This document shows, one piece after another, positions 1,629 to 55,878 of a stretch of DNA of 64,000 bases. The DNA lies in the NCBI RefSeq assembly GCF_022846255.1, contig NZ_AP025682.1; one strand, given 5' to 3'. Numbering within the stretch: position 1 is the first letter of the stretch; each line of letters starts with the position of its first letter. The translations under genes were made by a program, and so were the position numbers. A model generated the notes under the pieces. That model was not told the origin of the DNA, did not search any database, and saw nothing but the letters and a program-made list of their open reading frames with translations. Source of the DNA: Escherichia coli (GTDB lineage: Bacteria; Pseudomonadota; Gammaproteobacteria; Enterobacterales; Enterobacteriaceae).

Positions 1629-1640
1629 TATTGTTCTGTA

Positions 1641-5031: not shown

Positions 5032-5133
5032 AATTCTCTCGTTCTGATGACAGGTCAGATCCGCTTCACCTGATGAAGCGGTTAGGGGAGTGCCCCCACT
5101 TTAAGGGCGGGCATTGTAGCGCAATCGGCGGGT

Positions 5134-5430
5134 TTAGCTCCAGTGTAAATGTCTGGAGGCGTCCTGGTTTTGGTTAAGGATACGAATGACGATAATTTCC
5201 TCTGGTGATTGCAGGAAATAAATTACGTGGCGTTCAAAAGGAAGAACAAAAATACCTTCGCCTAATTCAGGTCTGGGTGTACCTATATTATTGTTACTCA
5301 GAATCTGGAGAACGTCTGAAAGATGTTCCACATATCTGTCGGCTTGTGGTTCGCCGAAATGGTGATAGCTGTAATACCAGATGCCTTCTAAATCCTCATT
5401 GGCTTTTGGCATGAGTTTTATAGTACGCAC
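5134..5430 (-). CDS. RelE/ParE-superfamily type II toxin (ParE-like)
   Basis: About 92-98 aa; ParE-like segments (EDLEGIWYY..FGEPQADRYVEHL...HVIYFLQSPEEIIVIRIL); directly downstream of, and nearly abutting, an RHH antitoxin ORF. Start is either GTG at 5430 or ATG at 5412. Confidence 0.75.
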   Translation of the reverse strand: MRTIKLMPKANEDLEGIWYYSYHHFGEPQADRYVEHLSDVLQILSNNNIGTPRPELGEGIFVLPFERHVIYFLQSPEEIIVIRILNQNQDASRHLHWS

Positions 5431-5431
5431 A

Positions 5432-5683
5432 TTATTTCCTTATCCCTGCTTTCACCTTCCGTAAAAACGCGTCCTTTTCCCACGGCTGAGCTTCACCACT
5501 ACTCAACCCTTCAGCGAGCATGTCACGTAACGCTTGCAGGCGAGACTCTGCTTGCTTTTCTCGAAGTAAGCGCAGCGACTCACGGATCACTTCGCTTTGG
5601 GTGCGATAGTCGCCGGATTCAATTAAGGACTCGATAAATTCACGCAACTCATCGCCGAGATCAACCGTCATCGTTCTGGCCAT
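5432..5683 (-). CDS. ParD-like (RHH/COG3609) type II antitoxin
   Basis: 83-aa product from ATG at 5683 (MARTMTVDLGDELREFIESLIESGDYRTQSEVIRESLRLLREKQ...); ribbon-helix-helix ParD signature; stop 1 nt before the toxin start. The supplied ORF extends to 5728. Confidence 0.75.
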   Translation of the reverse strand: MARTMTVDLGDELREFIESLIESGDYRTQSEVIRESLRLLREKQAESRLQALRDMLAEGLSSGEAQPWEKDAFLRKVKAGIRK

Positions 5684-5890
5684 TTTACGCCCGCCTGTAA
5701 GTAAAAATCTTACATCAGTGTATTTCATAAACCGGATAGCGTCACGAAAGTATTAGAAGATATTTTGGCATATGAACATGTTCAGGAAGATAAGTATGGG
5801 ATGGTAAACAAAGAAAGCACAACGAGTGCTTGTCAGTGCCCACTATTTTAATGGCGGAGGTTAATCTTAATTATCAATAACTAAGAGTTG

Positions 5891-5929
5891 TTTTGATATA
5901 AAGCCGGACGCCAACAACCCACGCCCGGC
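5891..5929 (-). terminator. putative intrinsic terminator downstream of yegP
   Basis: On the minus strand a GC-rich hairpin (gccgggcg...cgtccggc) followed by TTTATATCAAAA lies immediately 3' of the yegP stop. Confidence 0.5.
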
Positions 5930-5936
5930 ATCGTAA

Positions 5937-6269
5937 TTACGTATTGTCTTTTACCGTCTGACTTGTGCCATTGGCTTTAACGGAGGCAATTCCGGTTTCA
6001 CGAGATTGCGCGGTGGCGTACATCTGGCTGGAGCCGATAATTTGATGATTGGCGGCTTTCAGATTGAAATAGAATTTGCCGTTGCTTGCCGTTTTTTTCT
6101 CATAGCGTTCTTCTTGCGGGCTGTTGCTACGTACCGACGCGATGCCCTTTTCCGCAGAGGCTTTTGAGGTATACAGCTCGCTGGTGAGGATAGTCTCACC
6201 ATTGCCCGCTTTTAGCACAAACCGGAACTGATTATCACTGCTCTTACTGAGTTCAAACCAACCAGCCAT
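5937..6269 (-). CDS. yegP: UPF0339/DUF1508 tandem-repeat small protein YegP
   Basis: 110 aa from ATG at 6269 with a strong RBS (aaggagtcATG); MAGWFELSKSSDNQFRFVLKAGNGE... followed by an internal repeat (KFYFNLKAANHQIIGSSQMY). Confidence 0.85.
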   Translation of the reverse strand: MAGWFELSKSSDNQFRFVLKAGNGETILTSELYTSKASAEKGIASVRSNSPQEERYEKKTASNGKFYFNLKAANHQIIGSSQMYATAQSRETGIASVKANGTSQTVKDNT

Positions 6270-6448
6270 AATGACTCCTTGATTGAAATTGCGTATCGAA
6301 AACAGCATCTAAAGGTACTGTTTGCCAATTAAAGTATGAGCGATTTTCTGGTGCCTGCCAGGGCGGAGAGATAATGTCAGTTTGCTGACCATGCGTGGGA
6401 TAATGTTGCCGGATCTGGTCTGAAGGCCATCTCCGGCAGGTAAAAATG

Positions 6449-7171
6449 TTAAACGATGCGGCAGGCATCGGCTTCCCAGCGGTAACCGACGCCGTAAACG
6501 GCGCGGATAAATGACTGTTCGGCGTCGAGAGATTCCAGCTTGCGGCGCAGGTTTTTAATGTGGCTGTCGATGGTACGGTCAGTTACCACGCGGTAGTCGT
6601 CATAAAGATGGTTCAGCAACTGCTCGCGGGAGAACACTTTTCCTGGTTCATGAGAGAGCGTTTTCAGCAGACGAAATTCTGCAGGCGTCAGGTCAAGCAT
6701 TTTACCGCGCCATGAAGCCTGAAAACGACCTTCGTCGATAATCAACGGGCTTTCAGCATCCTGTTGCTGCAACTCACGCTGCGGTTTGCAACGGCGCAAA
6801 ATGGTTTTGACGCGCGCTACCACTTCCCGTGGGCTGTACGGTTTGCAGATGTAGTCATCTGCGCCAATCTCCAGCCCGAGCAGGCGGTCGATCTCTTCGA
6901 TTTTTGCTGTCACCATCACGATCGGAATGTCAGAAAAACGACGAATCTCCCGACACAACGTCAGGCCATCGGTGCCAGGGAGCATCAGATCCAACAGGAT
7001 CAGATCCGGTGGTGTCTGGCGCACATATGGCAGTACCTGATCGCCGTGGCTGATAAGCGTCGGCGCATAGCTCGCAGCACGCAGATAATCAATGAGTAAC
7101 TGTCCCAGCTTCGGTTCATCTTCCACGATCAAAATACGCGGTGTGTTTTCGTCGATTGGTAACTCGGTCAT
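6449..7171 (-). CDS. baeR: OmpR-family response regulator BaeR
   Basis: 240 aa; receiver domain ([11 protein letters not shown]...[11 protein letters not shown]) plus winged-helix output domain; overlaps the baeS stop. Confidence 0.95.
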
Positions 7172-8571
7172 ACTTCTCTCTGTAAATCCCGTTCCAGCGG
7201 TAACTCTACTGTAATGCTTACCCCGCCAAAAGGCGAATGGGCAGCAATAATGCGACCATTATGTGCTTCAACAATGTTCAGGCAAATCGCCAGCCCCAGC
7301 CCGGAACCGCCGCTGGCTCGGTTGCGGGAGCCTTCGGTGCGATAAAAACGTTCAAACAATTTTTGTAGCTGATCGTCACTGACGCCCGGCGCGCTGTCGG
7401 CAAAGGTCAGGCGCACCGTTTTGTCGTGCTGCTCGGCAGAGATTATCAGGCTACCGCCGCTGTCAGTGTAGCGCAGGCTGTTTTCCAGTAAGTTATTGAA
7501 TAACTGCATTAAACGGTCGCGATCGCCAAATACGGTAATACTGTCTGGCAGGGAAAATTGCAGTTTCAGGCCACGGCTGGCGAATCGTTCGCGAAATGCG
7601 CCGCCCGCCACTTCCAGCAGTGGGATCAAATCTACCGGTGCTTTTTGATAGGCGAGAGCGCCTTCATCAGACATCGACAACTGATGGAGATCGTCAACCA
7701 GTTTGGTCAGTGTACCGACCTCCGCCTGTAAAGACGCCACCGTCTCCGGCGTGAATTTACGCACGCCATCCTGAATGGCTTCCAGTTCACCGCGCAGCAC
7801 CGCTAATGGCGTACGCAGTTCGTGAGAAATATCGGCCATAAAATCGCGCCGCATTTGCTGGTTTTTCTCCAGCGTGCTGGCAAGCTGGTTGAAGTCTTGC
7901 GCCAGTTTGCCCAATTCATCTTCACTGGTGGGCGTCACGCGAGTAGTGAAATCGCCCGCTGCCAGTTTGTGTGTACCGTCCACCAGTCGTTTGACCGGAG
8001 CCAGCAAACCGCGCGCCAGTGGGAATGTCGCCAGCGCCGCTAACAAGGTAGATAAAGCGACAATCAGCCAACTGGTTTGCCTCTGTTGTCTGTCAAAATT
8101 GATATCGGTATTGCGGGTCAGTCGTTCAACAGGGGAGGCGATCACCGCACCCACTTCCGCCCCATTGACCATAATGGGCCGCCGTGTGCCGTCTGGTGGA
8201 ATCGGTGCTCGCGGGCCAACCAGCACTTTGTTGTTTTGATCAACCACCCAGAATTGCGTGCGCCAACCGTGTGGCGGCATACCGGGGCCGGGCTTATCTT
8301 CGTTGTTATCATGCTCCAGCGAACGTAGGATCTGAAATACAAAGCGATCGTTATTACGCAGGAAGCGCCAGTTCCCGTGCTGGGCGTACTGCTCACCAAG
8401 CGCATCGCCGAGCATTTGCAGCCGTTGTTCATTACCATGCTTGATGTAATCAATAAAGCCACGCTCAAAACTGATACGCACCGCCCAGTGCATACTGATC
8501 AGCAAGACAATGCAGGTGGCGAAAATCGCCAGAAACAGTTTGCCGGTAATACCGGGTCGCCAGAACTTCAT
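7168..8571 (-). CDS. baeS: envelope-stress sensor histidine kinase BaeS
   Basis: 467 aa; two transmembrane segments, HAMP, H-box ([11 protein letters not shown]) and HATPase domain. Confidence 0.95.
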
Positions 8572-9983
8572 TGCGCGCTCCTTTTTCGCCGCGAAATAGC
8601 GACATTTTGATGCGTATCGTTCGGCACTCTGGCAAAGATGAACGCCGGAAGGGCGATGATAAACGCCATGCTAAGCCAGGTGTACATAAAGACGGTTTGT
8701 GTGGTGCCGCTGTCGACGCTGACATGCTGTGAACCAAAAAGTCCCAGCAACAGCCCGGCGATAGTGACGCCGATACTCATCGACAATTGCATAATCATCG
8801 ACAGCAGGCTGTTTCCGCTGCTCGCCAGATTGTCCGGGAGATCTTTCAGCGTCAGGGTGTTCATGGAGGAGAAACGCGTTGAGTTGACCATTCCTTGTAA
8901 AAACAGGACGAACGGTAAAACGTAGTACCAGCCCAGCAGCGCGGTGGTCATAAACAACATGGTGACCAGCGACAGACCCAGCGTGGTCGCTACCAGTACC
9001 CGACGATAACCAAAGCGATTCACCACCTGTACCACAATTCGCTTCATTCCCATGCTGCCAAGCACCATCGGGATCATCATCAGTCCGGCATGAAAAGGCG
9101 AGAAACCGAGGCCAATTTGCAGGAAAACCGGCGTCATAAAGGGCAACATGCCGCTACCGATACGTCCGGCAAAGCTCCCCGCCAGGCCCAGTGAAAAGGT
9201 ACGAGTGCGGAACAGTTTCAGACTGAAAAGAGCGCGGTTGTTATTTCTGGCGTGCAGCAGATAAAGCACCAGTGCCACCACACCAACTGTGACCAGGCCA
9301 GCAATCGCCAGCGGCGATAAACCTGTACCTTTACTGCCGTCCAGCGCCAGGGTTAATACCGCCATGCCAACCGCCAGCAATAAAAAGCCGGAGAGATCAA
9401 AGCACCGCGTCTGCATGGTGTAGTTCGGCATTAACATCAGTGTGGCGATCGCGCCAATAATCCCCACCGGAATGTTGATCAAAAAGATCCAGTGCCACGA
9501 TGCGTACTCCACCAGCAGACCGCCGAGCGCCGGGCCAAGCAGCGGCCCGACCTGACCGGGCAGCGTGACAAAGGTCATCGCCGCCATATATTGCTCGCGC
9601 GGTACGATTTTCATCACCGTCAACCTACCGACCGGCACCATCATCGCGCCGCCAACGCCCTGTAACGCGCGTGCCAGCAACAGTTCGTTCAGCGTGCCGG
9701 AAAGCGCGCAAAACAGTGAACCGAGAGTAAACAGCACGATGGCGGTAAAGAAAATATTGCGCACGCCGACTTTGTCCGCCAGCCAGCCGCTGGCGGGCAG
9801 CATCACCGCCACGGTCAGTACATAAGAGACAATGACCATGTGCATATGCAACGGACTTTCCCCGAGGCTTTGCGCCATTGAGGGAAGCGCGGTGTTAACG
9901 ATGGTGGTGTCCAGCGACTGCATAAAGAAGCCGAAAGCCACAATCCACAATTGCCAGCGGGTGCTGTCGGGAAGATCTGTCAT
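8568..9983 (-). CDS. mdtD: MFS transporter MdtD
   Basis: 471 aa, 14-TM major facilitator profile; overlaps the baeS start by 4 nt. Confidence 0.93.
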
Positions 9984-12900
9984 TTACTCGGTTACCGCTT
10001 GTTTAGGTTTACGCGAAAAACGCAGCCGCAGACGGTCGAAAAAGAGATACACCACCGGCGTGGTATACAGCGTCAGAAGCTGGCTCATGACCAGACCGCC
10101 GACAATGGTGATCCCCAATGGTTGGCGCAACTCCGAGCCGTCACCGCCCGACAATACCAGCGGTAGCGCACCAAACAGCGCCGCCAGGGTAGTCATCATA
10201 ATCGGGCGAAAACGCAGCAGACAGGCCTGGAAAATAGCTTCCTGCGGCGTCAGGTTACCGTGCCGTTGGGCTTCAAGCGCAAAATCGACCATCATAATGG
10301 CGTTTTTCTTCACGATGCCGATTAATAACATGATCCCTATCAGCGCAATTAGGCTGAACGGGGCATTGAACAGCTCCAGCGCCAACAGCGCTCCGACGCC
10401 CGCCGAGGGTAGGGTGGAGAGAATCGTCAGTGGATGCACATAACTCTCGTAAAGGATACCCAGTACGATATATACCGTGGCGATGGCGGCGATAATCAGG
10501 ATCACCTGTGAGTTCATCGTCTCCTGGAACACTTGCGCTGTTCCGGCAAAACTGCCGCGCACCGTCGAAGGCACACCAAGCTGGGTCATTGCGCGATCGA
10601 TCGCCGCACTGGCGTCCGAGAGCGATTTCCCGGTCGGCAGGTTGAACGAAATGGTCGAGGCCGCCGATAATCCCTGATGATTCACCGACAGTGGAGCGTT
10701 CGCCGGTTGCCATTTAGCGAAATACGACAGCGGGATCGCTTTTCCTTCGTTATTGATAACGAACATTTTTTCCAGTGCACTGATGTCCTGGGTATAGCGC
10801 GGATCCACTTCCATCACCACTTTGTACTGGTTCATCGGCTGGTAAATGGTCGAGATTTGCCGCTGACCGAAGGCGTTATTTAACAGGCTGTTGGCGGCTT
10901 GCACGTCAATTCCCAATCGCGCCATAGTGTCGCGATCGTAAATAAGGTTCATCTCCGCGCCATTATCTTCCTGATCGGAGTTAACATCAGCCAGCTCTGG
11001 CAATGTCGCCAGTTTTTTGCGGATTTTCGGCTCCCATTCGCGCAGTGCCGCCAGGTCGTCGGATAACAACGTGTACTGGTAACTGGCGTTAGCCTGACGT
11101 CCGCCAACGCGAATATCCTGTACCGCCATCAGGAACAGATTCGCTCCCGGTTCTTTCGCCAGTTTTTTACGCAAGCGATCGATAATCTGTTGGGCCGTTT
11201 CGCTCCGCTCGCCGCGTGGTTTAAGGGTGATAAACATCATTCCACTGTTCACCCGTGAACCGCCGGTAAAGCCGGTGACATTATCCACCGCCGGATCGTC
11301 ACGGATAATTTTCATGAAGTCCTGCAACTTACCGCGCATCGCCTGAAACGAAATACTCTGGTCAGCCTGTATCCCGCCCATCAGTACGCCGGTATCCTGC
11401 TCCGGGAAGAAGGTTTTCGGGATCGAGATATACAGCCAGATATTCAGCGCAATGGTGCCAAGCAGCACCACGCCCACCAGACGGGTATGATTGAGCACCC
11501 ATTTCAGCGACTTGCCATAGCCTTGTTGCAGGGCTACCAACATGCGACCAAAGCCACGCAGTCGCTTTTGCTCGCGCGGCTTGCTGGCTTTTAGCATCCA
11601 GCCGCACATCATCGGCGTTAACGTCAGGGAAACCAGCAGCGAAATACCAATGGCGACAGAAAGCGTCACGGCAAACTCGCGTAACAGGCGACCCGGCAAT
11701 CCGCCCATCAACAGCAGCGGCAGGAACACCGCCACCAGTGACAGACTCATCGACAGCACTGTAAAGCCGACTTCACGAGTACCTTGCAGCGCGGCCTGTA
11801 GCGGTTTCATCCCCGCCTCCAGATGACGGGCAATGTTTTCCAGCACCACGATGGCGTCATCCACCACAAAGCCAGTGGCGATGGTGAGCGCCATTAACGA
11901 AAGATTATTGAGACTGAAACCACACAGGTACATCGCCGCAAACGTACCAATCAGCGAAACCGGCACCGCAACGGCGGGAATAATGGTGGCGCGACCCGAA
12001 CGCAGGAACAAAAACACCACCAGAATCACCAGTGCAACTGAGATTACCAGCGTCTGCTCAACCTCTTCCAGCGACGCGCGGATAGTAGGGGAGCGATCCT
12101 GGGCAATTTGCAGATCAATTGCTGCCGGGATGGTGGATTGTAATTCCGGCAGACGGGCGCGGATGCTGTCTACCGTCTGGATAATATTGGCTTCCGGCAG
12201 CTTGCGGATCATCAGCAAAATAGCCGGTTTGGCGTTGGTCATCCCGGCGTTACGTACATCTTGTACAGAGTCGGTCACCGTCGCCACATCGCCCAGACGA
12301 ACCGCGCCGCCGTTGTTGTAATGAATAATCAGCGGCTGATATTCAGCGGCGGTTTTCAGTTCATCGTTAGTCTGGATCTGCCAGCGGTGAGTACCATCTT
12401 CCAGCGCCCCCTGCGGTTTACGCACGTTGGCATTGCTGATGGCGGTGCGTACGTCGTCCAGCGAGACGCCCTGATTAAACAGCGCCTGCGGATTCAGCCC
12501 GACGCGTACGGCGGGCAGCGAGCTGCCGCCAACATCGACATCACCGACACCGTCGATTTGCGAAATCGTCGGAGCCAGCTGTGTCGAGGCGAAATCGTAC
12601 AGTTCACCCTGCGAATAAGTATCGGATGTCAGCGTGAGGATCATAATTGGCGCATCCGACGGGTTCGCTTTGCGATAGGTCGGACGGCTGGGCATCCCGC
12701 TGGGTAGCAGACTTTGCGCGGCGTTGATCGCCGCCTGCACATCGCGCGCTGCGCCGTTGATATCCCGGTCAAAATCAAACTGCAAAATAATGCGCGTGCT
12801 GCCGAGCGAACTGCTGGAGGTCATTTCGCTGACTCCGGCAATGCGCCCAAGTGAGCGCTCCAGCGGCGTGGCAACGGAAGACGCCATTGTTTCTGGTGAC

Positions 12901-13061
12901 GCACCGGGCAGCGAGGCGCTGACCATGATCACCGGAAAATCGACCTGCGGCAGCGGGGCGACTGGCAGCATACGGAAACCCAGTATGCCGCACAGGGTAA
13001 TGGCGACCGACAGTAAAATCGTCGCCACCGGGCGGTAAATGAAGAGGGCAAAAAACTTCAC
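9984..13061 (-). CDS. mdtC: RND multidrug efflux pump subunit MdtC
   Basis: 1025 aa AcrB-like RND transporter ([25 protein letters not shown]). Confidence 0.95.
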
Positions 13062-16000
13062 TTACGCCTCCTCTTCATGACGGGCAAAGCGGCTTTTGGT
13101 CCACAATGCCAGACGGTCGAACAGCAGATAAATCACCGGCGTGGTAAACAGCGTCAGCACCTGGCTGACAATCAGACCGCCGACCATGCCGATACCTAAC
13201 GGACGACGCAGTTCCGCGCCGACCCCGGTACTCAACATCAGCGGCAGCGCACCAAGCAGAGCCGCCAGAGTGGTCATCAGGATCGGACGAAAACGCAACA
13301 GACAAGCCTGGTAAATAGCTTCGCGCGGCGACATGCCTTGCTCGCGCTCAGCAGCCAGCGCGAAGTCGATCATCATGATGGCGTTCTTCTTCACGATACC
13401 GATCAGCAAAATAATGCCGATAATGGCAATCACATCCAGTTCGCTACCGGCAATCATTAACGCCAGCAGCGCGCCGACCCCTGCGGTGGGTAGCGTCGAG
13501 AGAATGGTGATCGGGTGAATAAAGCTCTCGTACAGAATGCCGAGCACGATATACATCGCCACCACCGCCGCGACAATCAGCCAGACAGTGCTGCCCAGCG
13601 CTGACTGGAAGGCGAGGGTGCTGCCCTGGAACTGCGTGGTGATATCCACCGGCAGATTCAGCGTCTTCTCTGTGTCCATAATCGCTTGCACCGCATCGCC
13701 CAGCGAATAGTTATCCGGCACGTTAAAGGAGATAGTCGTTACCGGGAACTGATCCAGATGGTTGATGGAAAGCGGCGCAAAACGCTGCTCAATTTTGGCA
13801 ATTGAGCTTAACGGCACCACGCCACCGTCGCTGCTGGTCAGGCGAATGGTATCCAGCGCCGCGAGGCCTGGGGTATTTTCGGTGTTGTGTTCCAGTACCA
13901 CGCGATACTGGTTAGCCTGAGTATAAATAGTGGAAATCAGTCGCTGACCAAACGCGTTGTACAGGGCGTTATCGACATCCGCCATGCTGATCCCTAGGCG
14001 GCTGGCGCTGTCCCTGTCGACATTGACATACGCCACCAGCCCTTTGTCCTGCCAGTCGCTGGAGACATCAGAAAGCTGTGGCAGCTGCTGGAGTTTTTCC
14101 ATCAACTGTGGCACCCAGGTACTGAGCGCATCCAGTGACGTGGCCTGCAAGGTAAACTGGTACTGGGTGCGGCTGACCTGAGTATCAATAGTCAGGTCCT
14201 GCGTTGGTTGCAGGAAGAGATCGACGCCCGGCACTTTATCTACCGCCGTTTGCAGACGGGCGATGACTTTTTGCACCCGGTCATCTCGTTCATCCAGTGG
14301 TTTGAGATTGATCTGTAAACGCGCACTGTTCAGCGACGGGTTAGTGCCATCAACGCCAACAAATGAGGTCAAACTTTGCACTGCCGGATCCTGCAAAATC
14401 ACGTCCGCGACCTGGCGTTGCCGCTGGGCCATATTCGCAAAGGAGCTGGATTGCGGTGCCTGCAAAGTGCCCTGAATAATGCCGTTGTCCTGCACCGGGA
14501 AGAAACCTTTCGGAATGAACACCCACAGCAGCACGCTAAGCAGCAGCGTGCTGAGCGCCACGCTTAAGGTCAGCCACGGATGATTCAGCACTTTCGCCAG
14601 CCCACGACCATAGGCGGCGATTATCCTGTCGAACATTTTCTCCGAGGCACGGGAGAAGCGGTTCTGTTTACGCAGCGACTCCTGGCTGAGCATCCGCGCG
14701 CACATCATCGGTGTCAGGGTCAGCGACACCACCGCCGAGATCAAAATCGCGACTGCCAGGGTAATAGCAAATTCGCGGAACAGTCGCCCGACGATATCGC
14801 CCATAAACAGCAGGGGGATCAACACCGCAATCAGCGAGAAGGTCAGCGAGATAATGGTAAAGCCGATTTCACCCGCGCCTTTGAGCGCCGCCGCCAACGG
14901 TTTTTCGCCTTTTTCGATATAGCGGGAAATATTTTCGATCACCACGATGGCGTCATCGACCACGAATCCGGTGGCGATAGTTAACGCCATCAGCGTCAGG
15001 TTATTGATTGAAAAATCGAGAAACACCATGACCGCAAAGGTGCCAATTAACGACAGCGGTACAGCAACACCGGGAATGATGGTCGCCGGAATATTGCGCA
15101 AAAACAGGTAGATAATCATGACTACCAGCGCGATAGCCATCATCAGCTCAAACTGGGTATCGTCGACCGATGCGCGGATATTGGTGGTACGGTCAGAAAG
15201 TACCGTCACCTTCACCGATTTCGGCAGACTCTCGGTGAGCTGTGGTAGCATCTGCCGGATGCTGTCGGCGGTGGAGATAATGTTAGCACCGGGCTGGCGC
15301 TGGACATTCATCACAATGGCCTGTTCTTTGTTCGCCCATGCGCCGAGCCAGCTGTTTTCTGCTCCTTGCTCTACAGTAGCGACATCGCCCAGACGAATTG
15401 GTGCGCCGTTCTGGTAGGCGATGATTAGCTGGCGATACTCTTCGGCGGATTGCATCTGGTCGTTAGCGGAAAGCGTGACCGCGCGGGAAGGGCCGTCGAG
15501 GCTACCTTTTGCCGAGTTAACGTTAGCGCCGGTAATAGCGGTGCGTACGGTTTCGCTGGTCAGGCCGAGGGCGGCAATCGCCTGAGCGTTAAGTTTGACG
15601 CGAACAGCCGGACGCTGGCCGCCGGAAAGTGTGACCAGCCCTACGCCGGAAATCTGCGAGATTTTCTGCGCGACGCGGGTTTCCACCATATCTTCCACCT
15701 GGGTCATCGGCATGGCGGTTGAGGTGACGGCGAGCGTCATGATCGGTGGATCTGCCGGGTTCACTTTGCTGTAAACCGGCGGGTTAGGCAGATCGCTCGG
15801 TAGCAGGTTAGTGGCAGCGTTAATCGCGGCCTGCACTTCCTGCTCGGCGACATCCAGCGGCAATGTTAGCTGGAACTGTAAAGTGATAACTGACGCACCG
15901 CCGGAACTTTGCGACGACATCTGTTTCAGGCCAGACATCTGCCCGAACTGGCGTTCGAGCGGCGCGGTAACGGCAGAGGTCATGACATCCGGGCTTGCAC

Positions 16001-16184
16001 CTGGATAAAGCGTGACCACCTGAATGGTTGGATAGTCCACTTCCGGCAGCGCCGAAACGGGCAGGGCGCGATAACCGATAATCCCGGCGAGTAAGATCGC
16101 CACCATCAGCAGCGTGGTGGCGACAGGACGCATAATAAACAGGCGCGACGGGCCGCCTGTGCTGCTCGGGGGTAACACCTGCAT
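13062..16184 (-). CDS. mdtB: RND multidrug efflux pump subunit MdtB
   Basis: 1040 aa AcrB-like RND transporter, paralogous to the adjacent MdtC. Confidence 0.95.
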
Positions 16185-17431
16185 CAGGAGCGCGCTCCTT
16201 TTTTCGCGTATTCGCGGCTGGTGGCTTTATCTTCCGGGGTAGTGGCGCTCTGGGCTTCCACGACTTCCACTTTCGCCCCTTCGGTCAGGCGATCAATGCC
16301 GTCCGTCACTACGCGGTCGCCCGCAGAAATACCTGCACGGATCACCACTTTCTGACTGTCCTGAATGCCCGGTGTCACCAGATGTTTGCTGACTTTGTTT
16401 TCGCTATTCAGTACCCAGACAAAATGGCCTTCGTTGCCCATTTGCAGTGCGGCGGTGGGGATCACCACGGCGTTTTGTTCGGTATCGACTAACATGCGAG
16501 CGTTAACAAACTGATTAGGGAAAAGCGCATCATCCTGATTATTAAAGCGAGCTTTCACTTTAATCGTACCGGTAGTGGCATCGATTTGGTTATCGAGACT
16601 TAACAGCGTGCCTTCACTTAACTTCTTCGAGTTGGTGCGATCCCAGGCTTCTACCACCAGCGGTTTTCCGGCTTTTTGCGCCTGTACAACGGTGGCGATA
16701 TCGCTTTCCGGCAGAGTAAAGACCAGATCGATAGGATGCGTCTGGGTGATCACCACAATCCCGGTGGTGTCGCCACTGGAGATTTGGTTACCAACATCAA
16801 CCTGCTTGAGACCAACGCGACCATCAACTGGTGCGGTGATACGGCTCCAGTCGAGTTGCAGCTGTGCGCTGGCGACGCTTGCTTCATCAGCCTTAATGGT
16901 ACCTTCGGTTTCACTGACCAGCGCTTGTTGGGCATCCAGTTCCTGACGAGATACGAGATTGGTTTTTGCCAGTTGTTGATAACGCGCCAGGTCACGGCGG
17001 GCGTTGGCGAGCGTGGCTTTATCTTTTGCCAGTTGGCCCTGGGCTTGTGCTAATGCAACTTTGAACTGGCTTGGGTCAATTTCTGCCAGTAAATCGCCTG
17101 CTTTGACCTGCTGGCCTTCCTGGAAATGTAACGCCATCAGTTGACCGTCCACGCGGCTGCGCACCGTAACAGTATTAGCGGCGGTAATGGTGCCAAGCCC
17201 GGTGAGGTAACGCGGAACAGCCTGTTCTACTGCGGTCGCCGCCTGAACCGGAGCTAATGGGCCGGCACGCATACCACGGCGACCACCCGCTGGCGATTGC
17301 TGCGCTTGTTTCGTCGCCCCAGGGGCTGCACTCTGGGAGTCATTGCGGCCTTGCCAGAACCAGAATGCGGCGATGGCGGCGATAACCACCACGATTACGA
17401 TTACCCAACGGGATTTATAACTGCCTTTCAT
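16184..17431 (-). CDS. mdtA: RND efflux membrane fusion (periplasmic adaptor) protein MdtA
   Basis: 415 aa from ATG at 17431 ([16 protein letters not shown]...). The supplied ORF start at 17578 adds 49 residues upstream that I reject. Confidence 0.9.
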
Positions 17432-37957: not shown

Positions 37958-38446
37958 ATGCTGGAAGATCTGCGCGCCAACAGCTGGAGTTTACGCCCGT
38001 GCTGCATGGTTCTCGCCTATCGCGCTGCTCATTTTTGTTCGGTGTGGCGCAAAAAGAACGTCCTCAACAATCTTTGGGCGGCCCCGCTGCTGGTGCTGTA
38101 TCGCATTATCACCGAATGCTTTTTCGGTTATGAAATCCAGGCCGCCGCGACCATTGGCCGACGCTTTACTATCCATCACGGTTACGCCGTAGTGATCAAT
38201 AAAAACGTGGTAGCGGGGGATGATTTCACCATTCGTCACGGCGTCACTATCGGCAATCGTGGTGCCGATAACATGGCATGTCCACACATTGGCAACGGCG
38301 TCGAACTCGGTGCCAACGTCATTATTCTTGGTGATATCACGATTGGTAACAACGTCACCGTGGGCGCGGGCAGCGTGGTGCTCGACTCTGTCCCGGACAA
38401 CGCGCTGGTGGTGGGAGAAAAAGCGCGAGTGAAGGTAATTAAATGA
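37958..38446 (+). CDS. wcaB: colanic acid acetyltransferase WcaB (hexapeptide-repeat family)
   Basis: 162 aa; left-handed beta-helix hexapeptide repeats. Confidence 0.9.
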   Translation: MLEDLRANSWSLRPCCMVLAYRAAHFCSVWRKKNVLNNLWAAPLLVLYRIITECFFGYEIQAAATIGRRFTIHHGYAVVINKNVVAGDDFTIRHGVTIGNRGADNMACPHIGNGVELGANVIILGDITIGNNVTVGAGSVVLDSVPDNALVVGEKARVKVIK

Positions 38447-39660
38447 ATATTCTGCAATTTAATGTGCGACTGGCGGAAGGCGGGGCAGCAGGTGTGGCGT
38501 TAGATCTCCACCAGCGCGCGCTGCAACAGGGGCTGGCGTCACATTTTGTCTACGGCTACGGCAAAGGCGGCAAAGAGAGCGTCAGCCATCAGAACTATCC
38601 GCAGGTCATCAAACATACGCCACGGATGACCGCGATGGCGAACATTGCGTTGTTTCGTCTGCTTAATCGCGATCTGTTCGGCAATTTCAATGAGTTATAT
38701 CGCACCATTACTCGCACACCGGGCCCGGTGGTTCTGCATTTTCATGTGCTGCACAGCTACTGGTTGAATCTTAAGAGCGTGGTGCGCTTTTGCGAAAAAG
38801 TGAAAAACCATAAACCGGATGTCACTCTGGTCTGGACGCTACACGACCATTGGAGCGTTACCGGACGCTGCGCCTTTACCGACGGTTGCGAAGGCTGGAA
38901 AACGGGCTGCCAGAAATGCCCGACCTTAAATAACTATCCACCGGTAAAGATTGATCGCGCGCACCAGCTGGTGGCGGGCAAACGGCAGTTATTTCGCGAG
39001 ATGCTGGCGCTGGGCTGTCAGTTTATTTCCCCCAGCCAGCATGTGGCTGATGCTTTCAATAGTCTGTACGGTCCAGGGCGTTGCCGGATTATCAATAATG
39101 GCATTGATATGGCAACCGAAGCGATTCTGGCGGACTTGCCTCCGGTGCGCGAAACTCAGGGCAAGCCGAAAATCGCGGTGGTAGCGCATGACCTGCGTTA
39201 CGACGGCAAGACTAACCAGCAACTGGTGCGTGAGATGATGGCGCTGGGCGACAAAATCGAACTACATACCTTCGGTAAGTTCTCGCCGTTCACCGCTGGC
39301 AACGTGGTTAATCACGGCTTTGAAACTGACAAGCGCAAGTTGATGAGCGCGCTCAATCAGATGGATGCGCTGGTATTCAGTTCTCGCGTCGATAACTACC
39401 CACTGATTTTGTGTGAGGCGCTATCGATTGGTGTGCCGGTGATTGCCACCCATAGCGATGCGGCGCGGGAAGTGCTGCAAAAATCCGGTGGTAAAACCGT
39501 CAGCGAAGAAGATGTGCTGCAACTGGTGCAGTTAAGCAAACCGGAAATCGCACAGGCGATATTTGGTACCACGCTGGCTGAGTTCAGCCAGCGCAGCCGC
39601 GCCGCCTACAGTGGACAACAGATGCTGGAGGAGTATGTCAACTTCTATCAGAATCTGTAG
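38443..39660 (+). CDS. wcaC: colanic acid glycosyltransferase WcaC (GT4 family)
   Basis: 405 aa; position and length match wcaC. Confidence 0.9.
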   Translation: MNILQFNVRLAEGGAAGVALDLHQRALQQGLASHFVYGYGKGGKESVSHQNYPQVIKHTPRMTAMANIALFRLLNRDLFGNFNELYRTITRTPGPVVLHFHVLHSYWLNLKSVVRFCEKVKNHKPDVTLVWTLHDHWSVTGRCAFTDGCEGWKTGCQKCPTLNNYPPVKIDRAHQLVAGKRQLFREMLALGCQFISPSQHVADAFNSLYGPGRCRIINNGIDMATEAILADLPPVRETQGKPKIAVVAHDLRYDGKTNQQLVREMMALGDKIELHTFGKFSPFTAGNVVNHGFETDKRKLMSALNQMDALVFSSRVDNYPLILCEALSIGVPVIATHSDAAREVLQKSGGKTVSEEDVLQLVQLSKPEIAQAIFGTTLAEFSQRSRAAYSGQQMLEEYVNFYQNL

Positions 39661-40855
39661 CTACCTGCTGCTGCCGCTGATCTACCTGCTGGTTAACGTT
39701 AAAATCGCCCAGCTTGGCGAAAGTTTCCCCATCACCATCGTCACTTTTTTACCTGTCTTGTTACTGCTGTTTTTAGAGCGCATCAGCGTTAAAAAATTGA
39801 TGATTGCCTTAGGGATTGGCGCGGGGCTCACGGCGTTTAACTACCTGTTTGGTCAGTCGTTGGATGCCAGTAAATATGTCACTTCAACCATGCTGTTTGT
39901 CTATATTGTGATCATTATTGGCATGGTGTGGAGTATTCGCTTTAAAACGATTTCTCCACACAACCATCGCAAGATATTACGTTTCTTTTATCTGGTGGTC
40001 GGGCTGGTGGTGGTGCTGGCGGCGGTGGAGATGGCGCAAATTATCCTCACCGGCGGTAGCAGTATTATGGAGTCGATTTCGAAATATCTGATTTACAGCA
40101 ACAGCTATGTGCTGAATTTCATTAAATTTGGCGGCAAGCGCACGACAGCACTTTATTTCGAACCGGCATTTTTCGCTCTGGCATTAATCTCAATTTGGCT
40201 CAGCATCAAACAGTTTGGTATCAAAACGCCTAAAACCGATGCTATGATTCTCGCAGGGATAATATTATCCGGATCGTTTTCAGGGGTTATGACCTTTATC
40301 CTGTTTTATTTGCTGGAGTGGGCATTTCAATATCTGAATAAAGAGGCGATTAAGAAAAAGTTACCGTTAGCATTGATTTCTCTGGCTGTATTCCTGGTTG
40401 GTGTGGTAATCGCGTTCCCTTATATTTCCACCCGTCTGGGCGATTTAGGTACAGAAGGATCGTCATCGTATTATCGTATTGTCGGTCCGCTGGTGATGGT
40501 CGGTTATTCTTTAACCCATATTGACGGTGTAGTCAGATTTGGCTCACTTTATGAATATGTCGCATCATTCGGAATATTTAACGGTGCGGATGTCGGAAAA
40601 ACCATAGACAATGGTTTGTATCTGCTGATTATTTATTTTTCCTGGTTCGCGGTGCTTTTATCACTGTGGTACATGGGGAAAGTGATAAAAATGATGATCA
40701 ACGCTTTTGGTGATAACCGCAATTTTCGCGTGCAATTATATCTTTTTACTCCGGTATCGCTGTTTTTTACCGGTTCGATATTTAGCCCGGAATATGCATT
40801 TTTAATCGTCTGTCCGTTTATTTTGCGAAAAGCGTTAAATATACACCCTAAATAA
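39635..40855 (+). CDS. wcaD: colanic acid polymerase WcaD (Wzy-like)
   Basis: About 406 aa, polytopic membrane protein, visibly AT-richer than its neighbours. Start chosen at ATG 39635 (MSTSIRICSYLLLP); uncertain by a few codons. Confidence 0.85.
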   Translation: MSTSIRICSYLLLPLIYLLVNVKIAQLGESFPITIVTFLPVLLLLFLERISVKKLMIALGIGAGLTAFNYLFGQSLDASKYVTSTMLFVYIVIIIGMVWSIRFKTISPHNHRKILRFFYLVVGLVVVLAAVEMAQIILTGGSSIMESISKYLIYSNSYVLNFIKFGGKRTTALYFEPAFFALALISIWLSIKQFGIKTPKTDAMILAGIILSGSFSGVMTFILFYLLEWAFQYLNKEAIKKKLPLALISLAVFLVGVVIAFPYISTRLGDLGTEGSSSYYRIVGPLVMVGYSLTHIDGVVRFGSLYEYVASFGIFNGADVGKTIDNGLYLLIIYFSWFAVLLSLWYMGKVIKMMINAFGDNRNFRVQLYLFTPVSLFFTGSIFSPEYAFLIVCPFILRKALNIHPK

Positions 40856-40890
40856 TTCGAGTTGCAGGAAGTGGGTGAGCGAGGAAAACC

Positions 40891-40922
<32 letters not shown>

Positions 40923-40935
40923 TACGAGGTAAAAC

Positions 40936-41682
40936 ATGTTGCTTAGCATAATCACTGTCGCGTTTCGTAACCTCGAAGGAATAGTCAAAACACACGCCTC
41001 GCTGGCGCATCTGGCGCAGGCGGACGATATCAGCTTCGAATGGATTGTTGTTGATGGCGGTTCCAACGACGGCACCCGTGAGTATCTGGAAAATCTCAAT
41101 GGTATCTATAACCTACGCTTTGTCAGCGAGCCAGATAACGGTATCTACGACGCCATGAACAAAGGTATTGAAATGGCGCAAGGCAAGTTCGCGCTGTTTC
41201 TCAATTCAGGCGATATTTTTCATCAGGATGCCGCAAATTTTGTCCGTAAGTTAAAAATGCAAAAAGATAACGTGATGATCACCGGCGATGCGCTGCTGGA
41301 TTTTGGCGACGGGCATAAAATTAAACGTAGCGCCAAACCGGGTTGGTATATTTATCACAGCCTGCCCGCCAGTCATCAGGCGATATTTTTCCCGGTATCC
41401 GGCTTGAAAAAATGGCGTTATGACCTGGAATATAAAGTTTCTTCCGATTACGCGCTGGCGGCCAAAATGTATAAAGCTGGTTATGCATTTAGAAAACTCA
41501 ATGGCCTGGTGTCTGAATTTTCTATGGGTGGGGTATCAACCACCAATAATATGGAATTGTGTGCTGACGCCAAAAAAGTCCAAAGGCAGATATTACATGT
41601 GCCTGGCTTCTGGGCTGAATTATCCTGGCATTTACGCCAACGTACTACCTCAAAGACGAAAGCCTTATATAACAAAAGCTGA
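40936..41682 (+). CDS. wcaE: colanic acid glycosyltransferase WcaE (GT2 family)
   Basis: 248 aa, [15 protein letters not shown]... Confidence 0.9.
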
Positions 41683-41697
41683 ATATAAGGGAAAACG

Positions 41698-42246
41698 ATG
41701 CAAGATTTAAGCGGTTTCTCGGTACCGAAAGGGTTCCGGGGCAGCAATGCTATTAAAGTGCAATTGTGGTGGGCGGTACAGGCAACAATATTTGCCTGGT
41801 CGCCACAAGTATTGTATCGCTGGCGGGCTTTTTTATTACGTTTATTCGGCGCAAAAATAGGAAAAAACGTAGTTATTCGTCCGTCAGTAAAAATTACCTA
41901 TCCGTGGAAATTAACTTTAGGTGATTACGCGTGGGTCGGCGATGAGGTCAATTTATATACCCTAGGTGAAATAACCATTGGCGCACATTCGGTGATATCG
42001 CAAAAAAGTTATTTATGCACCGGGAGCCACGACCATGCAAGTCAACATTTCACCATTAACGCCACGCCTATTGTGATAGGCGAGAAATGCTGGCTGGCGA
42101 CAGATGTTTTTGTTGCCCCTGGCGTCACGATCGGCAACGGCACCGTCGTGGGTGCGCGAAGCAGTGTTTTTAAATCGCTTCCGGCAAATGTGGTTTGCCG
42201 GGGGAACCCCGCAGTGGTGATACGCAAACGCGTTGAAACTGAATAA
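41698..42246 (+). CDS. wcaF: colanic acid acetyltransferase WcaF (hexapeptide-repeat family)
   Basis: 182 aa; hexapeptide repeats. Confidence 0.9.
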   Translation: MQDLSGFSVPKGFRGSNAIKVQLWWAVQATIFAWSPQVLYRWRAFLLRLFGAKIGKNVVIRPSVKITYPWKLTLGDYAWVGDEVNLYTLGEITIGAHSVISQKSYLCTGSHDHASQHFTINATPIVIGEKCWLATDVFVAPGVTIGNGTVVGARSSVFKSLPANVVCRGNPAVVIRKRVETE

Positions 42247-42272
42247 ATTCAAAAAATACAGAGGAATAAGAC

Positions 42273-43394
42273 ATGTCAAAAGTCGCTCTCATCACCGGTG
42301 TAACCGGACAAGACGGTTCTTACCTGGCAGAGTTTCTGCTGGAAAAAGGTTACGAGGTGCATGGTATTAAGCGTCGCGCATCGTCATTCAACACCGAGCG
42401 CGTGGATCACATTTATCAGGATCCGCACACCTGCAACCCGAAATTCCATCTGCATTATGGCGACCTGAGTGATACCTCCAACCTGACGCGCATTTTGCGT
42501 GAAGTACAGCCGGATGAAGTGTACAACCTGGGGGCAATGAGCCACGTTGCGGTTTCTTTTGAGTCACCGGAATATACCGCAGACGTTGATGCGATGGGTA
42601 CGCTGCGTCTGCTGGAGGCGATCCGCTTCCTCGGTCTGGAAAAGAAAACCCGTTTCTATCAGGCTTCCACCTCTGAACTGTATGGTCTGGTGCAGGAAAT
42701 TCCGCAGAAAGAAACCACGCCGTTCTATCCACGCTCTCCGTATGCGGTCGCCAAACTGTACGCCTACTGGATCACCGTTAACTACCGCGAATCCTACGGC
42801 ATGTACGCCTGTAACGGTATTCTCTTCAACCATGAATCCCCGCGCCGCGGCGAAACCTTCGTTACCCGCAAAATCACCCGCGCAATCGCCAACATCGCCC
42901 AGGGGCTGGAATCGTGCCTGTACCTCGGCAATATGGATTCCCTGCGTGACTGGGGCCATGCCAAAGACTACGTAAAAATGCAGTGGATGATGCTGCAACA
43001 GGAACAACCGGAAGATTTCGTTATTGCCACCGGCGTTCAGTACTCCGTACGTCAGTTCGTGGAAATGGCGGCAGCACAACTGGGCATCAAACTGCGCTTT
43101 GAAGGTACGGGCGTTGAAGAGAAGGGCATTGTGGTTTCCGTCACCGGGCATGACGCGCCGGGCGTTAAACCGGGCGATGTAATTATCGCCGTTGACCCGC
43201 GTTACTTCCGTCCGGCTGAAGTTGAAACGCTGCTCGGCGACCCGACCAAAGCACACGAAAAGCTGGGCTGGAAACCGGAAATCACCCTCAGAGAAATGGT
43301 ATCTGAAATGGTGGCTAATGACCTTGAAGCAGCGAAAAAACACTCTCTGCTGAAATCTCACGGCTACGACGTGGCGATCGCGCTGGAGTCATAA
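42273..43394 (+). CDS. gmd: GDP-mannose 4,6-dehydratase
   Basis: 373 aa, [31 protein letters not shown]... Confidence 0.95.
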
Positions 43395-43396
43395 GC

Positions 43397-44362
43397 ATGA
43401 GTAAACAACGCATTTTTATCGCTGGCCATCGCGGGATGGTCGGTTCTGCCATCAGGCGGCAGCTCGAACAGCGCGGTGATGTGGAACTGGTATTACGCAC
43501 CCGCGACGAACTGAACCTGCTGGACAGCCGCGCGGTGCATGATTTCTTTGCCAGCGAGCGCATTGACCAGGTCTATCTGGCGGCGGCGAAAGTAGGCGGC
43601 ATTGTTGCCAACAACACATATCCGGCAGATTTCATCTACCAGAACATGATGATTGAGAGCAACATCATTCACGCCGCGCATCAGAACGACGTCAACAAAC
43701 TGCTGTTTCTCGGATCGTCCTGTATCTACCCAAAACTGGCAAAACAGCCGATGGTAGAAAGCGAGCTGTTACAGGGCACGCTGGAGCCGACCAACGAGCC
43801 ATACGCCATTGCCAAAATCGCCGGGATCAAACTGTGCGAATCTTACAACCGCCAGTACGGACGCGATTACCGCTCTGTCATGCCGACCAACCTGTACGGG
43901 CCGCACGACAACTTCCATCCGAGTAATTCGCATGTGATCCCTGCATTGCTGCGTCGCTTCCACGAGGCGACGGCACAGAATGCACCGGACGTGGTGGTGT
44001 GGGGCAGCGGTACACCGATGCGCGAATTTCTGCACGTCGATGATATGGCGGCGGCGAGCATTCATGTGATGGAGCTGGCGCACGAAGTCTGGCTGGAGAA
44101 CACCCAACCGATGCTGTCGCACATTAACGTCGGCACGGGCGTTGACTGCACTATCCGCGAGCTGGCGCAAACCATCGCCAAAGTGGTGGGTTACAAAGGT
44201 CGGGTGGTTTTTGATGCCAGTAAACCGGATGGTACGCCGCGCAAACTGCTGGATGTGACGCGGTTGCATCAGCTTGGCTGGTATCACGAAATTTCACTGG
44301 AAGCGGGGCTTGCCAGCACTTACCAGTGGTTCCTTGAGAATCAAGACCGCTTTCGGGGGTAA
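43397..44362 (+). CDS. fcl: GDP-L-fucose synthase (GDP-4-keto-6-deoxymannose 3,5-epimerase/4-reductase)
   Basis: 321 aa, [19 protein letters not shown]... Confidence 0.95.
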
Positions 44363-54483: not shown

Positions 54484-55878
54484 ATGCCATTTAAAAAACT
54501 CTCCCGACGCACGTTCCTGACGGCAAGCTCGGTGCTTGCCTTCCTCCATACGCCTTTCGCCCGTGCAATTCCCGCTCAACAAAGCGTTAACATTAACGAC
54601 TACAACCCTCACGACTGGATCGCCTCATTTAAACAAGCCTTCAGCGAAGGGCAAACGGTCGTCGTGCCTGCCGGATTGGTTTGTGACAATATCAACACTG
54701 GCATCTTCATTCCTTCTGGCAAAACGTTACACATCCTCGGAAGCCTGCGCGGCAACGGTAGAGGGCGATTTGTCTTACAGGACGGCAGCCAGGTGACAGG
54801 GGAGGAGGGCGGCAGTATGCATAACATCACCCTGGATGTGCGTGGTTCTGACTGCACCATCAAAGGGCTGGTGATGAGCGGCTTTGGCCCGGTGACGCAG
54901 ATCTATATCGGCGGCAAAAACAAACGGGTCATGCACAACCTGACCATCGATAACCTGACCGTTAGCCACGCTAATTACGCCATCTTACGCCAGGGATTTC
55001 ATAACCAGATAATCGGTGCCAACATCACCAACTGTAAGTTCAGCGACTTACAGGGCGACGCTATTGAATGGAACGTGGCGATTAACGACAGTGATATTTT
55101 GATATCCGACCATCTCATTGAGCGCATTAACTGTACCAACGGCAAAATCAACTGGGGCATCGGCATAGGTCTTGCGGGAAGCACTTATGATAACAACTAC
55201 CCGGAAGACCAGGCAGTGAAAAACTTTGTCGTGGCGAATATCACGGGATCGGATTGTCGGCAACTGATCCATGTTGAAAATGGTAAACATTTTGTTATTC
55301 GTAATATCAAAGCCCGTAATATCACGCCGGATTTCAGTAAGAAAGCAGGTATTGATAACGCCACAGTTGCTATTTATGGTTGTGACAACTTTGTGATTGA
55401 TAATATTGAAATGATTAATAGTGCCGGGATGTTAATCGGCTATGGGGTAATTAAAGGCAAATATCTCTCGATACCGCAGAATTTCCGAGTGAATGATATT
55501 CAACTGGATAATACTCATCTTGCTTATAAATTGCGCGGCATTCAAATCTCCGCCGGGAATGCTGTCTCCTTTGTGGCGCTGACTAACATTGAGATGAAGC
55601 GTGCGTCGCTTGAGCTACACAACAAACCGCAACATCTTTTTATGCGCAATATCAATGTGATGCAGGAATCCTCAGTTGGACCCGCATTGAGCATGAACTT
55701 TGACATGCGCAAAGACGTTCGAGGCGTTTTTATGGCGAAAAAAGAAACACTGCTGTCTCTTGCAAATGTTCATGCGGTGAATGAAAAAGGACAAAGCTCC
55801 GTCGATATCGACAGGATTAATCACCATATTGTTAATGTGGCAAAGATTAACTTTAGATTGCCGGAACGGAGAGAGTAG
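54484..55878 (+). CDS. wcaM: colanic acid biosynthesis protein WcaM (secreted beta-helix-like protein)
   Basis: 464 aa with an N-terminal signal peptide; last gene of the cluster. Confidence 0.88.

Follow-up and report, generated by a model that had tools for sequence, protein, structure and literature searches.

The wcaD-wcaE-wcaF genes of the Escherichia coli colanic acid cluster: an ancient low-GC module probably held at its own compositional equilibrium

The colanic acid cluster of Escherichia coli includes wcaD, a gene coding for a predicted Wzy-type polymerase, whose base composition departs sharply from that of most of the genes around it. We analyzed this gene in a 64,000-nucleotide stretch of an E. 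coli genome (contig NZ_AP025682.1 of assembly GCF_022846255.1), here called the window, to which all positions refer. The departure is shared by the two genes downstream: wcaD, wcaE and wcaF probably form an ancient, vertically inherited module of low G+C content (GC), which is at its own, lower equilibrium of GC at third codon positions (GC3), with an additional effect of protein composition in wcaD. The module is older than the radiation of the Enterobacteriaceae and has diverged together with its neighbors in the operon.

With a GC of 0.424, and values of 0.428, 0.344 and 0.501 at the first (GC1), second (GC2) and third codon positions, wcaD has the cluster minimum at the first two of these. 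The 16 ordinary colanic acid genes have a mean GC of 0.542 (standard deviation 0.012, range 0.517-0.559) and a mean GC3 of 0.637 (standard deviation 0.032, range 0.58-0.71), which places wcaD at z-scores of -10.2 and -4.3, respectively; of the 1221-bp segments elsewhere in positions 1-56900, 0.64% are as AT-rich. Its synonymous codon usage departs from that of the pooled cluster (chi2/df 4.45, p 7e-19), and its codon adaptation index (CAI), computed from a Sharp-Li weight table entered by hand, is about 0.25, with about 0.32 for wcaE and about 0.21 for wcaF, against 0.31-0.53 in the other genes. The initial annotation, made from the sequence alone, had described wcaD as compositionally distinct from its flanks, and in this it was right. 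Among the flanks that it took to be of normal GC, wcaC and gmd are the sole true contrasts, whereas wcaE (GC 0.456) itself lies inside the low-GC block; likewise, the sliding GC and codon analysis that it proposed does place wcaD outside the range of its neighbors, but wcaE and wcaF fall outside that range too. The two AT runs that it quoted do not occur verbatim, the closest sequences being TTTTATTTGCTGG at 40304 and TTATTTATTTTTCCTGG at 40629.

The GC z-scores of wcaE and wcaF lie between -5.6 and -7.4, and maximum-likelihood change points at 39693 (support 39600-39876) and 42018 (support 41975-42394) delimit a block whose left edge is the wcaC/wcaD junction and whose right edge is the 3' part or the end of wcaF (Table 1). 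A K-12-like genome gives equal composition values for the block. The original papers on the colanic cluster, by Stevenson et al. in 1996 and 2000, reportedly remarked on low-GC genes or gene-to-gene differences in G+C. A published per-gene table lists a G+C of 42.4% for wcaD, 45.9% for wcaE and 47.5% for wcaF, with 51-56% for the other genes (PMC5359238), and wcaD has been used as an example of an AT-rich gene silenced by H-NS (PMC7229825); hence, the compositional observation as such is already known. The composition of wcaD-F is a documented trait of a well-studied cluster, leaves its annotation unchanged and matters little in itself.

We split the GC deficit of each gene by computing the GC expected from its amino acid sequence under the pooled synonymous usage of the cluster. 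The deficit of -0.117 in wcaD is made up of an amino acid term of -0.061 and a synonymous term of -0.056. The corresponding pairs of terms are -0.040 and -0.046 for wcaE, +0.011 and -0.074 for wcaF, and -0.016 and +0.015 for the gene of the flippase WzxC, which served as a control. WcaD has a proportion of 0.365 of the residues Phe, Tyr, Met, Ile, Asn and Lys (FYMINK) and of 0.197 of Gly, Ala, Arg and Pro (GARP), whereas most other genes have about 0.22-0.29 and 0.23-0.30; compared with WzxC, it has more Tyr, Phe, Ile, Ser and Lys, and less Val, Leu and Ala. Two effects are additive in wcaD: an amino acid makeup specific to WcaD, which lowers GC at codon positions 1 and 2, and a shift to poorly adapted codons ending in A or T, the latter common to wcaD, wcaE and wcaF.

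For the age and spread of the block we surveyed one genome per species, which yielded 80 loci with 10-kb flanks from about 20 named genera of Enterobacteriaceae, 70 of them with enough genes for comparison. The GC of wcaD is below that of all 13 reference genes in 70 of these 70 loci, with mean deficits of 0.122 in GC and 0.151 in GC3, and GC3 lies under that of every reference gene in 67 of the 70 for wcaE and in 64 for wcaF; the gene order of the block is retained in all 70. The median identity of WcaD across genera is 90%, and within the cluster only Gmd and ManC are higher. At four-fold degenerate sites, the window differs from the other taxa by 0.485 in wcaD and by 0.43-0.53 in most flanking genes, and this equality of divergence implies that the block has co-diverged with the operon. 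The GC3 of wcaD follows the GC3 of the lineage with a slope of 0.59 +/- 0.07, against about 0.8-1.2 for most genes. Within E. coli, the stretch from wcaC to gmd is present at the same place in 4780 of 5426 complete genomes, at 97-98% identity. The wcaD-wcaE-wcaF block is ancient, stable and co-diverged with the operon, and it is neither a recent import into E. coli nor spreading between genera.

The question of whether this old block is still drifting toward the composition of its surroundings was addressed by polarizing synonymous changes through Fitch parsimony on block-specific trees, with bootstrap. The ratio of changes from A or T to G or C over changes in the opposite direction (weak-to-strong over strong-to-weak, W>S/S>W) in wcaDEF is 0.93 (0.81-1.07) over the full set of synonymous sites, with 0.58-0.62 in the flanks; when only four-fold sites of wcaDEF are counted, it is 0.64. 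The implied GC3 equilibrium is 0.468 (0.443-0.496) for wcaDEF, whose present GC3 is 0.486, and 0.58 (0.566-0.598) for the flanks. No excess of AT-to-GC changes is seen in wcaD-F, also when the count is limited to short branches or to four-fold sites. By our own back-calculation from the compositions, relaxation toward the flank equilibrium would predict a ratio of about 1.6-2.4. If wcaD-F is at its own lower GC3 equilibrium, then something specific to these genes keeps the module AT-rich, and its origin by itself leaves the persistence of the AT-richness unexplained.

Several observations weigh against this reading. Relative to the 20 non-cluster genes of the window (GC 0.532, standard deviation 0.029; GC3 0.585, standard deviation 0.060), wcaD has a z-score of about -3.7 for GC but of about -1.4 for GC3, i.e. 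the GC3 of wcaD-F (0.47-0.50) is merely the low end of normal among these genes; the contrast is therefore partly due to the GC3-rich remainder of the cluster. The polarity test applies Fitch parsimony, which is known for over-counting GC-to-AT changes in GC-rich genes, to highly diverged sequences (four-fold differences of about 0.5), and the CAI values depend on the hand-entered weight table.

A relative of the module occurs in a different setting. The closest WcaD outside the colanic orthologs, at 45% identity, is encoded in a capsule locus of Klebsiella pneumoniae that has the order wcaD-wcaE-wcaF-gmd-fcl-gmm-wcaI-wcaJ, as in the colanic acid cluster. The genome of K. pneumoniae has a GC of about 57%. 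This colanic-acid-like locus (contigs L082 and L083, positions 1-17203) has an overall GC of 0.34 and rearranged 5' genes. No donor lineage of the block can be named; an origin of the module as low-GC genes in the polysaccharide-gene pool is plausible, and an ancient mosaic origin as such is possible.

Explanations that dispense with an equilibrium of the module's own fare less well against these data. Were protein composition the whole cause, a polytopic Wzy-like membrane protein would need AT-rich codons for Phe, Ile, Tyr, Lys and Asn, and nothing more. The cluster-minimum GC1 and GC2 of wcaD, its FYMINK and GARP proportions and its amino acid term agree with this, as does the Klebsiella homolog, which is among the lowest-GC genes of its locus (0.289) while its GC3 is ordinary there. 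However, half of the deficit is synonymous (GC3 of 0.50 against 0.637 expected with the codon usage of the cluster), and the synonymous shift of the soluble WcaE and WcaF is the same or larger. WzxC, moreover, is as hydrophobic as WcaD (46% Phe, Ile, Leu, Val, Met and Trp in each), yet its gene has a GC of 0.54 and a GC3 of 0.71, so that being a membrane protein is insufficient to account for the AT-richness of wcaD, and we regard composition alone as an improbable cause. The proposal that low GC is typical of Wzy-like genes consequently captures about half of the deficit in wcaD and nothing of wcaE and wcaF, and the effect is not specific to the polymerase, as soluble WcaE and WcaF have equally low GC3. 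Recent horizontal acquisition, with wcaD or wcaD-F as a xenogeneic AT-rich insert in E. coli, is suggested by the AT-richness relative to the neighbors and by the literature on H-NS, in which wcaD figures as one of the silenced, "horizontally acquired" genes that contain spurious promoters (PMC7229825). Against this stand the constant location in E. coli, the same order in every species locus, a synonymous divergence equal to that of the flanks and the high conservation of WcaD among the proteins of the cluster. Furthermore, the edges of the block fall on gene junctions within a translationally overlapping operon, and PLSDB shows no genuinely mobile copy: its 17 matching records are all from Escherichia, Salmonella or Klebsiella, and several of those listed are of chromosome size. 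Of the hallmarks of a xenogeneic island, the block has the high AT content, but neither a patchy distribution or low divergence nor, by parsimony, ongoing amelioration, and we consider such an acquisition most improbable. An ancient mosaic that is still ameliorating, i.e. slowly drifting from an old low-GC donor to host composition under the pressures acting on its neighbors, is unlikely, albeit less so than either of these. It would be in keeping with the sharp gene-level boundaries of the block, with the linkage of the same trio in the GC-0.34 Klebsiella locus, which shows that the gene pool for polysaccharides includes low-GC forms, and with the partial tracking of lineage GC3 by wcaD. On the other side, the observed W>S/S>W ratios fall short of the predicted 1.6-2.4, the inferred equilibrium GC3 (0.47) does not exceed the present value (0.49), and most synonymous sites must already have been replaced, given a pairwise divergence of about 0.5 at four-fold positions. 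The suggestion of an older mosaic origin is thus upheld as regards the age of the block, though not as regards a passively decaying relic.

As for what maintains the module at its own equilibrium, the most likely cause would be a combination of two factors: little or no selection for optimal codons ending in G or C where only small amounts of the product are wanted, and DNA-level constraints tied to H-NS silencing and to conserved internal promoter elements. The latter bear on an intragenic promoter already described in wcaD. It is one of six intragenic promoters tested in vitro, is repressed by H-NS, and needs an AT-tract and R451 of sigma-70; the study regards wcaD as AT-rich and silenced by H-NS, and its internal promoter as "spurious" (Warman et al., 2020; PMC7229825). 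The main text of an earlier study of spurious intragenic promoters makes no mention of wcaD (Singh et al., 2014; PMC3923964). In an alignment of 81 taxa, the extended -10 sequence TGNTATGAT of this promoter is kept in 79, including two synonymous positions of the box: GAT is fixed in 80 of 81, and codon 203 ends in T in 79 of 81, while the free N position of the box changes with the encoded residue (Ala, Gly or Val). Among the 12 TGnTAnnnT motifs in 16 genes of the window, the wcaD box alone reaches a conservation of 90% or more of the taxa, with 67% for the next best.

The same alignment reveals that 9.3% of the synonymous columns of wcaD are near-invariant, against 0-3.6% in the other 15 genes. 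The two lowest 15-column windows of synonymous entropy in all 16 genes (overall 1.01, standard deviation 0.14) are both in wcaD; we refer to these as patches A and B (Table 1), and both touch promoter-like elements. The third low window is explained by the overlap of wcaC and wcaD. The frozen codons of the patches are a mix of optimal and rare ones, and identical neighboring residues are fixed on different codons, which makes simple selection for codon preference unlikely. No conserved RNA structure was found at the patches (RNAalifold on 25 diverse taxa, 90-nt windows, codon-position-preserving column shuffles; z -0.1 to +2.1), two weak and unrelated dips occurring elsewhere in wcaD (z -2.7 and -2.4). 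No conserved open alternative frame of more than about 50 codons lies over wcaD, and the third positions of a 150-nt antisense open stretch coincide with those of wcaD, so that it adds no constraint. Rfam families at threshold are absent from 39-43 kb. By-eye consensus matching for FNR, RcsAB and marbox sites in patch A gave none that is convincing. Neither the patches nor the promoter box is retained in the wcaD homolog of the Klebsiella capsule locus. As a side observation, wcaC and wcaD overlap by 26 nt in differing frames (39635-39660), and synonymous diversity is lowered on both sides of this overlap, in wcaC codons 385-403 and wcaD codons 2-22, reaching somewhat past the dual-coding part.

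On these grounds we tentatively put forward that the "spurious" promoter of wcaD, rather than being a chance by-product of AT-rich DNA, belongs to an element that acts at the level of DNA or RNA and that the Enterobacteriaceae have conserved. This element would comprise the -10 box, the upstream patch of about 50 nt at 40175-40225, and the second patch together with the sigma-70-like site at 40553-40632. The near-invariant -10 box and the two synonymous patches across 81 taxa are possibly new observations. Four points speak against the promoter reading: the published promoter requires an AT-tract (-23 to -17) whose synonymous sites are not conserved; promoter-like sites show no overall enrichment; the patches fall on the best-conserved motifs of the WcaD protein; and wcaE and wcaF have low GC3 yet no frozen patches.

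These data also bear on two accounts of the AT-richness itself, neither of which we think likely when taken as the explanation. The more tenable, though doubtful, is selection for low or slow translation, whereby rare codons hold down the levels of the polymerase, WcaE and WcaF or pace their translation. The low CAI of the three genes and their rare codons (4.0-7.2%) are compatible with it, and in wcaD the rare codons recur at the same position in 48% of the other taxa, against a background of 0.02-0.34 depending on the amino acid; invariant ones include GGA313, TCA186, TCA311 and TTA/CTA184. Conversely, optimal codons (ATC, TTC, AAC, CTG and GGT) are as numerous as rare ones among the frozen sites, the neighboring identical residues fixed on different codons (TTC312/TTT315, AAC316/AAT326) fit poorly, gmm, wcaI and wcaL have similar percentages of rare codons, and the CAI weights are the hand-entered ones. 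The proposal in the initial annotation of selection for low expression is accordingly compatible with the low CAI and the shared rare codons, but is at odds with the mixture of optimal and rare codons at the frozen sites. Somewhat more doubtful still is a DNA-level function, under which the AT-rich block is kept for conserved regulatory DNA, e.g. for H-NS silencing or roadblock, or for internal sense promoters feeding wcaE and the genes distal to it. The in vitro demonstration of the H-NS-repressed promoter (PMC7229825), its well-kept -10 box, unique among the 12 motifs, and the excess of frozen columns and patches in wcaD argue for it; the variable AT-tract and the position of the patches on protein motifs argue against it, and the lack of patches in wcaE and wcaF means that they cannot account for the composition of the block as a whole. 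Internal signals as the cause of the AT-richness were rejected, as the consensus scan found no enrichment in 36-46 kb of promoter-like sites (6 found against 9.8 +/- 3.2 expected) or of terminator-like sites (15 against 12.8).

If the conserved element is real, the operon of 20 genes would have internal control points within wcaD, either promoters for wcaE-gmd and more distal genes or H-NS nucleation or roadblock sites, and such a regulatory function would help to account for the block staying AT-rich. Functional patches and a functional box would constitute a concrete case of a "spurious" intragenic promoter under purifying selection, and would offer a way into the question of how so long a polysaccharide operon divides expression among its genes. 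The low-GC module also carries a caution. Low GC and H-NS silencing are often read as horizontal acquisition, but here the genes concerned were already part of their operon when the enterobacterial genera diverged and have been inherited vertically with it, with no drift toward host composition.

Table 1. Positions in the window of the genes, the low-GC block and the sequence elements discussed in the text.
Feature	Positions	Strand	Description
wcaC	38443-39660	+	TIGR04015, 898 bits; GC 0.537, GC3 0.633; upstream flank, normal composition
wcaD	39635-40855	+	predicted Wzy-type colanic acid polymerase; GC 0.424, GC3 0.501, CAI ~0.25
Low-GC block	39693-42018		three-segment likelihood fit (gain 42 lnL units) and sliding profile; GC 0.435 vs 0.53-0.55 either side
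Patch A	40175-40225	+	wcaD codons 181-197; relative entropy 0.36; about -80 to -30 from inferred intragenic promoter start
Intragenic wcaD promoter fragment	40206-40286	+	primers of Warman et al. 2020 map exactly; sequence identical in window
Extended -10, TGCTATGAT	40240-40248	+	within the intragenic wcaD promoter fragment
Patch B	40553-40612	+	wcaD codons 307-326; relative entropy 0.46; overlaps -35-like hexamer of sigma-70-like site
Sigma-70-like site, TAGACA-16-GATTAT	40605-40632	+	consensus scan; kept in 99% of taxa at >=8/12 matches; overlaps patch B
ERIC/IRU-like palindromic repeat, putative short form	40843-40922	+	80 nt; alignment with K-12-like genome, absent there
wcaE	40936-41682	+	GT2 glycosyltransferase; TIGR04009, 516 bits; GC 0.456, GC3 0.502; in low-GC block
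wcaF	41698-42246	+	hexapeptide-repeat acetyltransferase; TIGR04008, 396 bits; GC 0.477, GC3 0.470, CAI ~0.21; in low-GC block
gmd	42273-43394	+	TIGR01472, 587 bits; GC 0.537, GC3 0.615, CAI ~0.53; downstream flank, normal composition
wcaM	54484-55878	+	NF007517, 1016 bits; GC 0.469, GC3 0.548; low GC, 3' end of cluster

The open reading frame (ORF) at 39635-40855, with its ATG at 39635 and stop codon at 40853-40855, coincides exactly with wcaD, and the product matches the NCBIfam equivalog TIGR04010 at 872.3 bits (cutoff 589.65) over residues 1-403, the profile having 404 positions. The gene is flanked by wcaC and wcaE, and the colanic acid cluster around it (33256-55878) is complete, in the order wza, wzb, wzc, wcaA-F, gmd, fcl, gmm, wcaI, manC, manB, wcaJ, wzxC, wcaK-M, followed on its 3' side by galF and by the rml/wzx O-antigen cluster (57.3-63.2 kb). 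Each of wza to wcaF, gmd, wcaI and wcaJ to wcaM scores above the cutoff of its own model, equivalog or subfamily, in NCBIfam; the scan did not extend to fcl, gmm, manC and manB, which were assigned by position and ORF alone. The RefSeq annotation of the K-12-like genome agrees with the cluster gene for gene. Of the block genes, wcaF has 7.2% rare codons. A further compositional outlier of the cluster is wcaM, which has an effective number of codons (Nc) of 55 and is rich in FYMINK residues.

Colanic acid is made by a Wzx/Wzy-dependent pathway, and WcaD is its predicted Wzy-type polymerase. The protein is a polytopic inner-membrane protein by its at least eight segments above a strict Kyte-Doolittle threshold (19-mers), and its AlphaFold2 model (mean predicted local distance difference test, pLDDT, 91.5) has 17 helices. 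The fold lies within the superfamily that unites WaaL, Wzy_C and SEDS proteins, and WcaD is related to the Wzy_C (O-antigen ligase/polymerase) superfamily; this Wzy-type placement rests on fold comparison and remote homologs, as neither the Pfam scan nor a sequence search of the PDB gave a direct Wzy-family match for WcaD itself. Its pathway partners are encoded in the same cluster: the MOP flippase WzxC (830 bits), the undecaprenyl phosphate glucose phosphotransferase WcaJ (992 bits), and Wza, Wzb and Wzc.

The colanic acid allele of this strain stands somewhat apart. The stretch from wcaC to gmd (38400-43400) has a top full-length identity of 97.9% among the 5426 complete genomes, whereas mdtBC of the same window reaches 99.7%; this allele therefore appears to be unusually divergent or recombinant. 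In addition, 622 of the 5426 genomes have no match at all to 38400-43400.

A further peculiarity of the strain is the 80-nt insertion that wcaD carries at its 3' end. The final three codons of the gene and its stop come from this insertion, which changes the C-terminus from ..NITR* to ..NIHPK* and lengthens the wcaD-wcaE spacer from 10 to 80 nt. The corresponding RNA forms a hairpin of -24.5 kcal/mol (z -3.0). The repeat is found at this site in 730 of 5426 complete E. coli genomes (about 13%). The dispersed family of which it is a member is present in 5425 of the 5426 genomes, at a median of 6 places in each and a maximum of 12, and its other copies measure about 123-125 bp. The ends of the insertion appear to resemble the consensus of the enterobacterial repetitive intergenic consensus (ERIC, also called intergenic repeat unit, IRU). 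Searching the repeat against Rfam, which has no curated ERIC model, gave sub-threshold hits alone, to the unrelated small RNA families Ysr49 and V_AS5. The sequence fits a short-form ERIC/IRU element: like these repeats it is an imperfect palindrome in a transcribed intergenic position, with a stable RNA hairpin and a dispersed multi-copy family. Unlike the full element of about 127 bp, the wcaD copy is without about 45 central bases, extends across a stop codon and replaces the three final codons of wcaD.

Compared with the colanic acid (wca/cps) clusters of E. coli K-12 and Salmonella, the cluster described here is equal in gene set and order; it is unlike that of K-12 in that the 80-nt repeat alters the C-terminus of WcaD and the spacing between wcaD and wcaE. 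With the wzy/wzx loci for O-antigen and capsule, such as the rml/wzx cluster of the window and the Klebsiella K loci, it shares an AT-rich Wzy-type gene of poor codon adaptation, the wcaD-like gene of the Klebsiella K locus having a GC of 0.289. However, those loci are AT-rich throughout (GC3 of 0.24-0.37 in the cluster of the window and 0.20-0.34 in Klebsiella), whereas in the colanic cluster this is true of only 3-4 of about 20 genes. The O-antigen and capsule polymerases are, moreover, hypervariable and serotype-specific, while WcaD retains its 90% median identity across genera and has a GC3 that is only moderately low (0.50). A last likeness is to H-NS-silenced genes with spurious intragenic promoters (PMC3923964; PMC7229825), wcaD being itself among the promoters tested in the latter study. 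Those promoters are read as chance products of foreign AT-rich DNA; wcaD, by contrast, is not recently foreign, and its -10 box is conserved across the family at synonymous sites.

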